Shown: positions 39,001 to 42,000 of the stretch, in pieces
How positions within the stretch are numbered: the stretch's first letter is position 1
Layout: every line of letters begins with the position of its first letter
DNA from: Candidatus Micrarchaeia archaeon
GTDB lineage: Archaea > Micrarchaeota > Micrarchaeia > Norongarragalinales > UBA8480
Assembly (NCBI GenBank): GCA_039794045.1
Contig: JBAMLY010000001.1
Location: 1 to 64,000, forward strand
DNA length: 64,000 nt
Reading direction: 5' to 3'
Made by a program: the position numbers

Positions 39001-42000
39001 ACGCCCTAGCAATAGTAAGCGAAGATGTTCACTACAAGCGCCTCGTGGAAGACGACGGAGAAAAATTTTATTTCTCGGGAGAGGTATACGAACGCTATTG
39101 CTCGATGGCGAAAAAAATGGGTTTCGAGCCCCGCACTTCTCGTTGGTACCGAGAGTACTTGCACGACCTAGAAAACCTAGGCTTGGTGCGCAGCACTGAG
39201 AGCGGCAAGGGAATCCGCGGGCACGCGACTCTCTTGCGCTTGAGCTACGACGCCCCCAAAGTAAGAAAAGCGATAGAAAAAACTCTTTTAGGAGAATGAA
39301 CTACTCCATGAAAGCATTGCAGGGAATCATAGTGCCCCTAGCAACGCCTCTCACTCCAAGAGAAGAAGTAGACCAAGCTGGAATGAGGCGACTCGTCCGC
39401 CACGTTTCCAGGGGCGGGGCAAACGCTTTGTTCGTTCTCGGCTCAACAGGCGAGTTCGCGTGCTTGGACTCGAAGCAAAAAAGGAAGGCAGTAGAAGCAG
39501 TCGTTGACGCTAACGAAGAAAAACTTCCAGTCCTGGCCGGCGTAACGGCTTGCTCTACCAAGAAAGCAGTGCAGCTAGCGAGAGACGCAGAAAAAGCGGG
39601 CGCCGACGCTGTAGTCTGCGCGCCACCCTATTACTACCAATTGCCGCAAGAAAAAATAATCGAGCACTTCCAGGCAGTCGCGAAAGCGACTAACCTCCCC
39701 GTAATCGCTTACAACTTCCCGCAAACAACTAAAAACGCTTTGGAAGTAGCCACCCTAAAAAAACTTTCAAGCAACTCGTGCTTTATTGGCTTGAAGGACA
39801 GCAGCGGCGACGAAAACTATTTGACGGCGGTAGCAAACGAGTTCCAAGACTCGCACTTTAAAGTATTTCAGGGAAACGAGAACGCGTTAGGGCAAGCACT
39901 CGTAATGGGCTGCGCGGGAGGAGTGCCGTCGCTTGCCAACGTCTTCCCACGCGAGTGCGCCGACCTCTGGAACGCCTTCAAAAAAATGGACTTCAAAGCC
40001 GTGCACGCAGCGCAAGAGAAAATTATTGAACTACAATTCGTTTACGGCCCGCAAAAAAGCAAGGCAATAGCAGGCATTAAAACCGCTTTAAACTATTTAG
40101 GCGTGTGCGGAAAAACAGTGAGCGCGCCTCTTCCAACCCTCTCGCCAGCAGAAGAGAAAACCATTGTGCGCGCGCTTCAAACGCATTTGCGCGAGTACAA
40201 GTACTGGAAGTAAGCACAGCGCCCTGGGCAGGATTTGAACCTGCGACCCCCTGATTAACAGTCAGGTGCTCTGCCGACTGAGCTACCAGGGCTTTCTGGT
40301 TAAAAACCAAGGAAAATTATTTTCTGGGTGCCAACTTTTATTAATGTTGTTTGAAGCAAATCTTATCATGGTTGTCAAGAGGTTGTGGGCTTTCGCTCCG
40401 CAGGGAAGCAGCGAGTTGGCGGAGTACTTAAAGTTGAAGAACAGTTACATAGAGGGCTTGAAGCGCGTGTTAGGTGAGGAGAAAGCGCGCGAGATGGCAG
40501 CGAAAGCCGAGAAAAACTTTGATTACTTGAAAAAGTTTTTCGGCGTGGCGGAAAGCGAGAGAGCCACGGCGTTGGTTAGATTGCACGGCTCTTTTGTTGA
40601 CGGAGGCTTGACGGAGGAGGACTTGTTTGCTGGTGCGAGCGCAGCTAAAACGCTTGGCTTGAAAAACCACGAGAAGCCTGTGGCCGCTCTTTTCCTAGCT
40701 CGCTTGCGCAAGTCTTTCCACGAGGCTTACGGTGACGGCAGCAAGTGGCTGAATTTCTTGAAGCGCGTCGAAGAACTCGCAAAACAAAAGCCGTCGCTCA
40801 AGGACTTGCACATTGCAATCGCTGAAGCGCGCGCTGAAGCGGCTTCAGCTAAGCTGCAAGAAATTTTTACTTCCATGGACGACTTAGAGCAAGAAATCAA
40901 GTTCTGCATTTTCGGGCAAGCGGACTTGCCTGAAGCAGTGTGGCGCGGCGAGAGACTGCTTGAGTTATTGCTCGCGCAAAAAAGAAAGCATTGATTTTCA
41001 GGGCAGGAAGTCTTTGTTGTTGATTTTTTCTGGCAAGTAAACGTTTGAAATGTATTGAAGGTTTTTGCTGCTGAGCGACTGAATTTCCGCCTTGATTTTT
41101 TTCTCGAGGAACTTGTTGATTTCGCGTTGCCATTCCTTTGACTTGAACCACTCGTATTCCTTCATTTCGTTGGCGCGCTTTATGTCCACGTCCTTCGCTT
41201 TTATGGTGACGCCGCGCAAGTCGTAGTGTTCTATGTCGGAAATGCTCATTCCAAGAAACTTGGCTTCCTTGCAGCCTAGCCTGTCGCTTTCGTGCGCTAG
41301 AGCCATGGAGCCGTACTTCATCGTAGAATAAATGTACCAGCCGTATGGGTCCGCGTCGGTGAGGACGTAGATTGGGAGTTTTAATTCGGTGCTCAAGCGC
41401 TGGAGGAGGCGGCGCGCGCCGCGCGCTGCTTGGCCGGCGGTGGTCATTATAAGGCAATGGTTTTTCTTCCAGTAAGCATCTTCGTTCAAGCGGTCGAAGA
41501 TCGCATTTTTTTCTGCGACGAGTACGTAGTCAACGTCTACTTTCTTGAACTCTATTTGTTCGACGATGGAAGGAACGGCCCACCCGCCTGAACCCATTTT
41601 AGACAAGTCAATCAAGTCAACCTTGTTTTTCACGCGGTCTTCCACGATTACTTCGCCTGCCATGCGTCCCTTTGGCTCGGCGCGCAAGTGAAGGCGTTCG
41701 CGGAAAGTGTCAAGCGCTACTTCCAAGTCTACTATCGCCAAGTCGGATTCTTTTTGTTCGTCTATCGTGTCTTCTTTGGTACCCGCAATCGTGTGCTTTT
41801 TAGCGTAGTAGAGGTCACGAAGAGTTGCAGTCAAGTTGTTTTCAAGCAAGTCTTTTTTCACGTAAGAGCCGACCAGCATGGTTTGCATGAAGCGGCGAGC
41901 GTGCGCGACGTTGAACAAGTACCTGTGAGCTACTTTTTCGCCGAGCACTATCTTTTTTTCTTTCTCGTCGAACAAGACGTTAGCTGAGCCGCGCACCGGA

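Follow-up and report, generated by a model that had tools for sequence, protein, structure and literature searches.

The locus

The window is a stretch of 64,000 nucleotides from a Candidatus Micrarchaeia genome that we call G000 (655 kb in 16 contigs, 92.12% complete). Its features of interest here are the following.

14405..15361, plus strand: PP-loop ATPase of the tRNA-thiolation type (ATP_bind_3; PF01171, 59.7 bits; PF03054, 38.4 bits)
25225..26466, plus strand: TruD/Pus7-type tRNA pseudouridine synthase, a kept modification gene (PF01142, 364.9 bits)
35640..36371, plus strand: SpoU-family RNA 2′-O-methyltransferase, a kept modification gene (PF00588, 91.7 bits)
40220..40292, minus strand: tRNA-Asn(GUU) (ARAGORN, 40219-40292; RF00005, 76.2 bits, model positions 1-71)
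55559..55651, plus strand: tRNA-Ala(GGC), whose D-arm region carries an insert (RF00005, 53.4 bits)
56197..56259, plus strand: tRNA-Val(GAC), 5′ part, with A15 (RF00005, 24.5 bits, under the gathering score)

The tRNA-Asn gene (anticodon GTT in the DNA) is the only window tRNA called by ARAGORN. The sequence bears out the initial annotation, which gave it G15: on the minus strand base 15 is G (40278), and it pairs with C48 (40245). This tRNA would be a substrate of the archaeal tRNA-guanine(15) transglycosylase, ArcTGT, if the enzyme existed. The tRNA-Ala gene has A15 (55573) together with T48, and because of A15 it cannot be an ArcTGT substrate; its anticodon and G3:U70 pair were read by eye. 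The RF00005 match of the tRNA-Val gene covers model positions 8-63 at 56204-56259 and stops in the T-arm, and its 5′ end comes from a reading of the flanking sequence.

The PP-loop ATPase is the kind of paralogue that lies behind weak false matches to QueC across the phylum.

Genomes and searches

The archaeosine route comprises preQ0 synthesis, ArcTGT and the finishing enzyme ArcS. The TGT TIM-barrel domain was sought with PF01702, which gave a match in all 14 control genomes. A gene was called ArcTGT at 350 bits or more against TIGR00432, and bacterial-type Tgt, which acts in the queuosine (Q34) pathway, above the TIGR00430 equivalog cut-off of 306.75 bits. QueC served as the signature gene of preQ0 synthesis (PF06508; TIGR00364, cut-off 150.3 bits). 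The finishing step was covered by ArcS (DUF5591, PF17884) and, through PF06508, by GAT-QueC.

The phylum sample comprises 401 genomes from records titled Candidatus Micrarchaeota, 188 of them at least 90% complete; most are draft assemblies, and several have one to three contigs. A survey of 121 phylum genomes was used for QueC and ArcS. Both tallies include one unpublished genome (G029) on which no claim depends, and each denominator is one lower without it. Groups titled Woesearchaeota, Thermoplasmatota, Bathyarchaeota and Methanobacteriota were also surveyed.

TGT-family genes

G000 gave no match at E ≤ 10 to either PF01702 or TIGR00432. Two custom profiles were run as well, and across all 4989 six-frame ORFs of 60 aa or more the one built from six phylum TGTs reached at best 7.9 bits. 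The other, from four ArcTGTs, peaked at 11.4 bits on a Cbf5/TruB ORF; that ORF is not an ArcTGT, and shares with it the PUA domain. A weak match to the Pus10 model falls on the same ORF. The initial annotation's statement that this genome encodes no TGT-family enzyme is thus borne out by two library searches and two custom profiles, and its absence extends to the bacterial-type Q34 Tgt.

The same annotation had found 23 of 25 sampled phylum genomes without TGT. This rarity is reproduced on the larger sample: a TGT-like match at E ≤ 0.01 occurs in only 9 of 401 genomes (seven above cut-off), and in 5 of the 188 with a completeness of 90% or more. These counts are samples from a larger group, and the genomes are related and hence not independent trials. 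The rare matches are real, but their nature had to be corrected. All six strong ones that were classified are bacterial-type Q34 Tgt, with 430.9-477.5 bits against TIGR00430 and 113.5-143.5 bits against TIGR00432, below its cut-off of 350; the genomes concerned belong to four families (f15, f17, f24 and f25). Three weak matches are a 27-bit DpdA-like protein, an ORF without a family and a 24-bit fragment. Archaeal-type ArcTGT was found in none of the 401 genomes.

Could the enzyme exist and merely be unassembled, in incomplete or badly binned metagenome-assembled genomes? At 92.12% completeness and in 16 contigs, G000 taken alone could hide a gene in a gap, and most of the genomes are drafts. 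The count of zero nevertheless includes 188 genomes of at least 90% completeness and several with one to three contigs, and in two other lineages, whose genomes are of similar size or smaller, a like search does find ArcTGT (58 of 61 and 20 of 21 genomes; see below). The tRNA genes, described below, give evidence that is independent of assembly. We give an artefact of this kind practically no credence.

preQ0 synthesis and the finishing enzymes

At E ≤ 0.001, PF06508 finds nothing in G000. It matches in 94 of the 121 surveyed phylum genomes, and among the matches listed none exceeds 35 bits. The matching ORFs are mostly of 220-750 aa, and most cover just the first 30-80 model positions, which we read as the PP-loop part. 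As evidence for QueC we discount these matches as weak cross-matches to other PP-loop ATPases; the best of them, in G054, is the exception and was the one scanned with NCBIfam, where its ORF scored 76.1 bits against the QueC cut-off of 150.3. We thus see no convincing QueC in the 121 genomes searched. GAT-QueC is also counted as missing, because PF06508 would have caught it. ArcS (PF17884) was found in none of the 121 genomes, G000 included, with positive controls in three euryarchaea.

tRNA modification genes have not been wiped out in general, since Trm56, TrmI/GCD14, Trm5/TYW2, Cbf5 and TruD are kept in G000. A 33-bit match to Trm1 (PF02005) was rejected, its ORF being the Trm5/TYW2 methyltransferase.

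tRNA positions 15 and 48

Base 15 was read in the 26 G000 tRNAs with a readable 5′ end, a partial set since many G000 tRNAs have odd introns, and in about 30 best-scoring tRNA matches in each other genome, a choice that may favour consensus-like tRNAs. Two ARAGORN calls of 557 and 1366 bases were left out as spurious, their 'introns' running from several hundred to more than 1000 bases. The ArcTGT-less genomes gave the following counts.

G000: 18 G, 7 A and 1 T (U) in 26 tRNAs
G012: 18 G, 9 A and 1 T in 28 tRNAs
G016: 24 G and 7 A in 31 tRNAs
G038: 24 G and 7 A in 31 tRNAs
G414: 8 G and 4 A in 12 tRNAs

Together these five have G15 in 92 of 128 tRNAs, as against 124 of 124 in four ArcTGT-bearing genomes (G403, 32/32; G405, 32/32; G464, 31/31; G404, 29/29). 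A15 or U15 occurs in 23-36% of the tRNAs of the first four, all from the phylum. In the order to which G464 belongs, G15 was found in 22 of 22 best-scoring tRNAs (L333-L361, the listed loci spanning 20 genomes), a consensus-biased set of little weight in which 12 were read directly and 10 by eye, allowing one extra 5′ base in the ARAGORN call.

The initial annotation had held that the tRNAs keep G15, generalising from one gene. That holds for tRNA-Asn and for 18 of 26 tRNAs in G000, and fails for the seven with A15 and the one with T15.

G15 remains the majority state in the ArcTGT-less genomes, and the tRNAs without it are mostly A15:U48. T48 accompanies A15 in 9 of 9 cases in G012, in all six readable in G016 and all five readable in G038, in 3 of 4 in G414 (the fourth has C48) and in four of the six read in G000, which has seven A15 tRNAs in all. 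The T15 tRNA of G012 has A48, and that of G000 has G48. G000 and G016 share A15 in tRNA-Tyr and in one tRNA-Pro. For G012, introns make the ARAGORN calls unreliable; the isoacceptor identities of its A15 tRNAs were therefore set aside, and we do not claim that the switch affected the same tRNAs in every family.

tRNAs with A15 or U15 cannot be ArcTGT substrates, so that no selection for the modification can be seen any more. This relaxation is positive evidence, at the level of sequence, for the modification being gone. The G15 that remains poses no paradox, since the Levitt pair G15:C48 suffices to account for it.

The modification might persist by another route, made by an unrecognisable non-homologous enzyme or supplied by a host, as ArcTGT or as modified tRNAs, through cell-cell contact. 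The 18 of 26 G000 tRNAs that still offer G15:C48 leave room for this. Yet no QueC or ArcS was found to make or finish the base, we know of no analogue of TGT, and the 23-36% of tRNAs with A15 or U15 differ from the uniform G15 of ArcTGT-bearing genomes. We judge such a route very improbable.

Other lineages and temperature

Among genomes at least 85% complete of the Thermoplasmatota-titled phylum, 58 of 61 have ArcTGT above cut-off. So do 20 of 21 in the order of G464, which lies inside the Woesearchaeota-titled phylum and has genomes of 0.4-0.8 Mb; the length there is about 418 aa. ArcTGT is also present in Bathyarchaeota- and Methanobacteriota-titled genomes. The Woesearchaeota-titled phylum has it in 1 of 201 genomes; in 109 of the 201 a TGT-family gene matches but falls short of the ArcTGT cut-off, and the six TGTs sampled there are all bacterial-type Tgt, each above the equivalog cut-off. 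Like bacteria, archaea of this type would put 7-deazaguanine at wobble position 34 instead of position 15.

The rRNA regions of G000 have 54.6% (16S) and 53.4% (23S) GC, and the IVYWREL fraction of its proteome is 0.388; by these measures the organism looks mesophile-like rather than thermophilic. ArcTGT also occurs in mesophile-like lineages, with a tRNA GC of 60-63% in the ArcTGT-bearing G405 and G403, and because such lineages exist temperature alone does not explain the loss. The tRNAs of G464, one member of its order, have 72% GC and are hyperthermophile-like.

A further reading is that the lineage never had archaeosine, ArcTGT having arisen or spread after it branched off. TGT is infrequent in several DPANN groups: in the row for this family (fam00366) of Supplementary Table S3 of Castelle et al. 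2021 (PMC8204110), Aenigmarchaeota have 0.108 (of 37 genomes) and Pacearchaeota 0.30 (of 90), and with the archaeal root placed among lineages of this kind, absence could be ancestral. Against this, ArcTGT is present in nearly all sampled genomes of one order inside an otherwise ArcTGT-poor Woesearchaeota-titled phylum and in the Thermoplasmatota-, Bathyarchaeota- and Methanobacteriota-titled genomes, and for every archaeal group outside DPANN the same row gives 0.89-1.0. A single gain with several later losses would be the simpler history. We regard primary absence as improbable.

Probable loss of the archaeosine route

We consider it highly probable that the whole archaeosine route was truly lost in evolution, no later than the base of the sampled phylum. 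G000 shows neither ArcTGT, nor QueC, nor the finishing enzymes ArcS and GAT-QueC, nor near-universal G15. The comparisons have the form of a lineage-wide reductive loss, with ArcTGT in 0/401 genomes against 58/61 and 20/21, and G15 in 92/128 tRNAs against 124/124. The initial proposal that archaeosine was lost in most of the phylum comes out strengthened, with ArcS missing from all 121 genomes, no convincing QueC and G15 relaxed. From genes and tRNA sequences together we infer that archaeosine is missing from the RNA itself.

In these organisms tRNA position 15 would be an ordinary unmodified purine, and a plain Levitt pair 15:48 would hold the tRNA core. Freed from the need to offer G15 to the enzyme, the pair could drift between G15:C48 and A15:U48. 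A moderate growth temperature and strong reductive genome evolution may have made the loss tolerable, and the chief role of archaeosine would then be to keep tRNA stable in the heat.

A wider reading, which we hold to be somewhat less probable than not, is that archaeosine was given up in much of DPANN and beyond one phylum, that the Woesearchaeota-type phylum swapped the archaeal for the bacterial hallmark, and that archaeosine was kept where tRNA faces heat. If that were true, lineages that keep and lack ArcTGT would form a ready natural experiment, with archaeosine kept where heat demands it and dropped elsewhere.

Whole phyla without archaeosine, with tRNAs adapted to its absence (A15:U48), would amount to a natural knock-out of great age, with the enzyme still present in close relatives. 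The purpose of the modification could then be tested both in the laboratory and by comparing lineages, including whether heat stability of the tRNA core is its only role. Single-copy marker sets for placing archaeal genomes and scoring their completeness include ArcTGT models, and a lineage-wide absence would bias the completeness scores of these phyla. Archaeosine has been described as 'ubiquitous to the Archaea' and present in 'virtually all archaeal tRNA' (PMC5485725), and has been termed a 'hallmark' (PMC7668247).

Comparison with known systems

Haloquadratum walsbyi is an archaeon not known to carry ArcTGT and would be a case of natural archaeosine loss; we know of no change at tRNA position 15 described for it. 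It is a single species, whereas here whole phyla are concerned.

The bare presence and absence of TGT in Micrarchaeota had already been tabulated. The initial annotation suspected that the absence might sit in the supplement of a DPANN survey, and it does: the fam00366 row of Table S3 gives 0.0 for Micrarchaeota (N = 13), with 0.43 for Woesearchaeota (of 196), 0.44 for Diapherotrites (of 25) and 0.89-1.0 for the remaining archaeal groups beyond the two quoted above (PMC8204110). The text of that paper reports bacterial QueA/QueH/Tgt in 12 DPANN genomes and, in the portions drawn on here, leaves loss of ArcTGT or archaeosine unmentioned, as the initial annotation had said of it. In the literature searched, those portions included, we found no remark in words on the absence of TGT from Micrarchaeota. 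The initial annotation expected a phylum-level lineage without archaeosine to be new; the loss is not peculiar to this phylum, the Woesearchaeota-titled one being likewise ArcTGT-poor. Our analysis differs from that table, which lumps archaeal and bacterial TGT types in one family, in separating the types, in a phylum sample about 30 times larger and in adding the consequence in the tRNA genes.

Nanoarchaeum equitans and Nst1 are tiny hyperthermophilic DPANN archaea with a split ArcTGT (PMC3655853). They resemble G000 and its phylum in being reduced and symbiotic, but retain the enzyme that G000 and its phylum lack. Transposon mutants of Thermococcus kodakarensis in tgtA and queE are thermosensitive at 93 °C, and the melting temperature of their tRNA is lowered (PMC6393311). 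They too are archaeal cells living without archaeosine; they are, however, laboratory knock-outs in a hyperthermophile, whereas the loss in the phylum would be natural, ancient and lineage-wide, in organisms of mesophile-like composition.

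Transglycosylase searches in the genome

The genome studied (G000; 655,099 bases in 16 contigs, completeness 92.12%, contamination 0.03%) had been annotated initially as encoding neither a TGT-family enzyme nor the preQ0 synthesis enzyme QueC, and both absences held. A six-frame search with PF01702 yielded 0 matches at E<=10, the control being positive in all 14 named genomes tested, which include four archaea. The equivalog model TIGR00432 for ArcTGT, the archaeal transglycosylase acting on tRNA G15, likewise yielded 0 at E<=10. Two profiles of our own were run with filters loosened, independently of the first-look filter, against the complete set of 4,989 six-frame ORFs 60 aa or longer. 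The best score was 7.9 bits (E 0.31) for the profile built from six TGTs of the phylum (records titled Candidatus Micrarchaeota), and 11.4 bits for the one built from four ArcTGTs of other genomes (loci L098, L099, L100 and L105). This last ORF, C6:16475-17449, is Cbf5/TruB, whose weak likeness to ArcTGT is due to its PUA domain. At control loci the four-ArcTGT profile scores 102-147 bits even on TGTs of bacterial type. QueC (PF06508) gave no match in the genome at E<=0.001, and the finishing enzyme ArcS (PF17884) no match.

There is no general collapse of tRNA modification in this genome, which retains Trm56 (138 bits), a TrmI/GCD14 homologue (72-76 bits), Trm5/TYW2 (153 bits), Cbf5 and TruD. 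Trm1, which makes m2,2G26, is found in five of seven relatives within the family (190-299 bits); G000 yielded no genuine Trm1, nor did G151 and G220 of its family. The sole match of G000 to the Trm1 model (C3:38427-39339) is a Trm5/TYW2 enzyme.

Census of the phylum

An evenly drawn sample of 401 genomes of the phylum was searched, G000 among them; it includes the unpublished G029, which is tallied only, no claim resting on it. PF01702 matched at E<=0.01 in nine genomes, seven of these above the cut-off, and in 5 of the 188 genomes with at least 90% completeness and at most 5% contamination. ORFs under the matches of all nine were translated and scanned with NCBIfam. The six strong matches (G316, G051, G007, G005, G138 and G155) exceed the cut-off of TIGR00430, the equivalog for bacterial tRNA-guanosine(34) transglycosylase (430.9-477.5 bits versus 306.75), and fall far below that of ArcTGT (TIGR00432, 113.5-143.5 bits versus 350). 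The match in G156 (L007:1285-2562, minus strand) is a 426-aa protein weakly resembling DpdA, a DNA-modifying transglycosylase (NF041059 27 bits, PF01702 33.7 bits); that in G378 is an ORF belonging to no family, and that in G106 a fragment of 24 bits. Archaeal-type ArcTGT was found by this search and typing in 0 of 401 genomes. A TGT-family enzyme had been called absent from 23 of 25 sampled near-complete members of the phylum; the rarity of such genes stands, and the six strong matches encode not ArcTGT but Tgt of the queuosine type, which acts at wobble position 34. These Q-type genes are confined to four small families (f15, f17, f24 and f25), where every sampled member has one, and an archaeal gatD adjoins one of them.

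ArcS was found in 0 of 121 genomes of the phylum. The QueC model matched in 94 of the 121, and apart from G054 all listed matches score at most 35 bits, in ORFs mostly of 220-750 aa. Most span just the first 30-80 model positions, which we interpret as the PP-loop portion. The G054 candidate (56.7 and 36.6 bits), the sole QueC match scanned with NCBIfam, was rejected at 76.1 bits against an equivalog cut-off of 150.3.

Other archaeal lineages

The search can detect ArcTGT in such genomes. In the phylum reached through the Thermoplasmatales-titled G403, 58 of 61 genomes at least 85% complete have it above cut-off, and in a 59th it is split by contig ends; the ArcTGTs of single Bathyarchaeota- and Methanobacteriota-titled genomes measure 576 and 655 aa.

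Among 201 genomes at least 85% complete from the phylum reached through the Woesearchaeota-titled G401, 110 have a TGT-family match, above the ArcTGT cut-off only in G464. The other 109 carry a gene under that cut-off, and all six sampled (L101, L103, L104, L106, L107 and L108, from G402, G424, G427, G467, G539 and G414) are bacterial-type tRNA-guanosine(34) Tgt, over the NCBI equivalog cut-off (TIGR00430, 397.6-447.6 bits). In the order of G464, with genomes of 0.4-0.8 Mb, 20 of 21 keep a short ArcTGT, whose ORF is in most cases about 418 aa long; a small genome is therefore not enough by itself to remove the gene.

Bases 15 and 48 of tRNAs

Tools disagree on the tRNA genes of the window, which is C1:1-64000 of G000:

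40219-40292, minus strand: tRNA-Asn(GTT), the sole tRNA call of ARAGORN in the window
40220-40292, minus strand: the same tRNA-Asn by the Rfam tRNA model, 76.2 bits
55559-55651, plus strand: tRNA-Ala(GGC), whose D-arm region carries roughly 20 inserted bases, missed by ARAGORN
56197-56259, plus strand: tRNA-Val(GAC), near tRNA-Ala(GGC), its match ending in the T-arm, missed by ARAGORN

The tRNA-Asn 5′ end reads GCCCTGG-T-A-GCTC-A-G, with G at base 15 (window 40278) and C at base 48 (40245), so that both tools and the sequence bear out the initial annotation's example of a G15 tRNA. A 242-aa ORF without a Pfam match (40266-40991, plus strand) overlaps this opposite-strand gene by 27 bases; its real start is probably further downstream.

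For G000 we took the 26 readable 5′ ends among listed Rfam matches (22) and ARAGORN calls, excluding two ARAGORN calls (557 and 1,366 bases) with implausibly long 'introns'. The claim that tRNAs keep G15 is right for 18 of the 26, tRNA-Asn included, and wrong for seven with A15 (Gly-CCC, Tyr, Pro-TGG, Pro-CGG, Ala-GGC, Val-GAC and one long-arm tRNA) and one with T15 (Val-CAC). For eight further genomes the best-scoring tRNA matches were used, about 30 per genome, identical sequences being counted once.

Table. Base 15 in tRNAs of the eight further genomes
G403, ArcTGT-bearing: G 32/32
G405, ArcTGT-bearing: G 32/32
G464, ArcTGT-bearing: G 31/31
G404, ArcTGT-bearing: G 29/29
G012, ArcTGT-less, family f11 of the phylum: 18 G, 9 A, 1 T of 28
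G016, ArcTGT-less, family f12 of the phylum: 24 G, 7 A of 31
G038, ArcTGT-less, family f13 of the phylum: 24 G, 7 A of 31
G414, ArcTGT-less, Woesearchaeota-type: 8 G, 4 A of 12

G15 thus totals 124/124 in the four ArcTGT-bearing genomes versus 92/128 in the five ArcTGT-less ones, G000 included (p = 3e-10 by a Fisher test covering the first seven genomes, a rough guide only because related genomes are not independent). Base 48 of G000 is C in all G15 tRNAs where it is readable, T in four A15 tRNAs and G in the T15 tRNA. A15 goes with T48 in all readable cases in G012 (9/9), G016 (6/6) and G038 (5/5), and in three of four in G414, the remaining one having C48; the T15 tRNA of G012 has A48. We read this pattern as G15 being released from the need to serve the enzyme as a substrate: the 15:48 Levitt pair of the tRNA core would stay for structure while drifting between two isosteric forms, G15:C48 and A15:U48. 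As judged from the RNA genes themselves, the relaxation is positive evidence, separate from gene-finding. The absence of TGT is real, and with ArcTGT in none of the 401 genomes, the initial reading that the archaeosine modification was lost in most of the phylum is well supported.

Window gene content

Gene neighbours in the window belong to the usual housekeeping set of archaea (exosome subunits, proteasome alpha subunit, SerRS, aRF1, Cdc6, topoisomerase VI, MCM, eIF5A), with TruD, a PP-loop ATPase and a SpoU methylase as retained tRNA-modification genes. The nearest relatives of the MCM, at 50-74% identity, are records titled 'Candidatus Micrarchaeota archaeon', in agreement with the phylum label. 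Two further features of this 655 kb archaeon were observed:

8430-12381, minus strand: four genes resembling a cytoplasmic group-3-type [NiFe] hydrogenase (large subunit, small subunit, NAD-binding/Fe-S subunit, 4Fe-4S subunit)
19418-20908, plus strand: a RelA/SpoT alarmone-synthetase domain (PF04607, 65.4 bits) within a protein of 497 aa

Growth temperature

By composition G000 looks mesophile-like. GC is 54.6% in its 16S region, 53.4% in its 23S region and 62% in its intron-less tRNAs, and its IVYWREL fraction of 0.388 corresponds to about 28 C by the formula for growth temperature reportedly given by Zeldovich 2007. tRNA GC is 72% in G464, 68% in G404 and 59-65% in G403, G405, G012, G016, G038 and G414. 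Earlier studies fit a role of archaeosine in heat stability: tgtA and queE mutants of T. kodakarensis are thermosensitive with lowered tRNA melting temperature (PMC6393311), and a split ArcTGT is retained in the hyperthermophiles N. equitans and Nst1 (PMC3655853). Mesophile-like non-DPANN lineages also retain ArcTGT, so moderate temperature would be permissive for its loss, and the push may have come from reductive evolution.

Comparison with known cases

Archaeosine is called ubiquitous in Archaea in passages of PMC5485725 and PMC7668247, and our full-text literature search found no statement of its loss in Micrarchaeota, Woesearchaeota or other DPANN. The initial annotation's worry that supplementary tables might list the absence was justified. 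In Supplementary Table S3 of Castelle et al. 2021 (PMC8204110), row fam00366 gives Micrarchaeota 0.0 (N=13), Aenigmarchaeota 0.108, Pacearchaeota 0.30, Woesearchaeota 0.43, Diapherotrites 0.44 and the remaining archaeal groups 0.89-1.0. The passage of their text on the subject reports, as the initial annotation said, only bacterial queuosine genes; it names 12 DPANN genomes with that pathway, far fewer than the 109 of 201 Woesearchaeota-type genomes with a TGT-family gene under the ArcTGT cut-off here. What the literature covered does not state is the distinction between archaeal and bacterial TGT types, the scale (ArcTGT in 0/401 and 1/201), the contrast with an ArcTGT-keeping order of tiny genomes, and the relaxation of G15 to A15:U48. 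Archaeosine is also reported to have been lost in Haloquadratum walsbyi. The claimed novelty is only partly upheld: the loss is not categorically new, its raw pattern having lain unremarked in a supplement, but it adds another case of archaea without archaeosine, one much larger and older.
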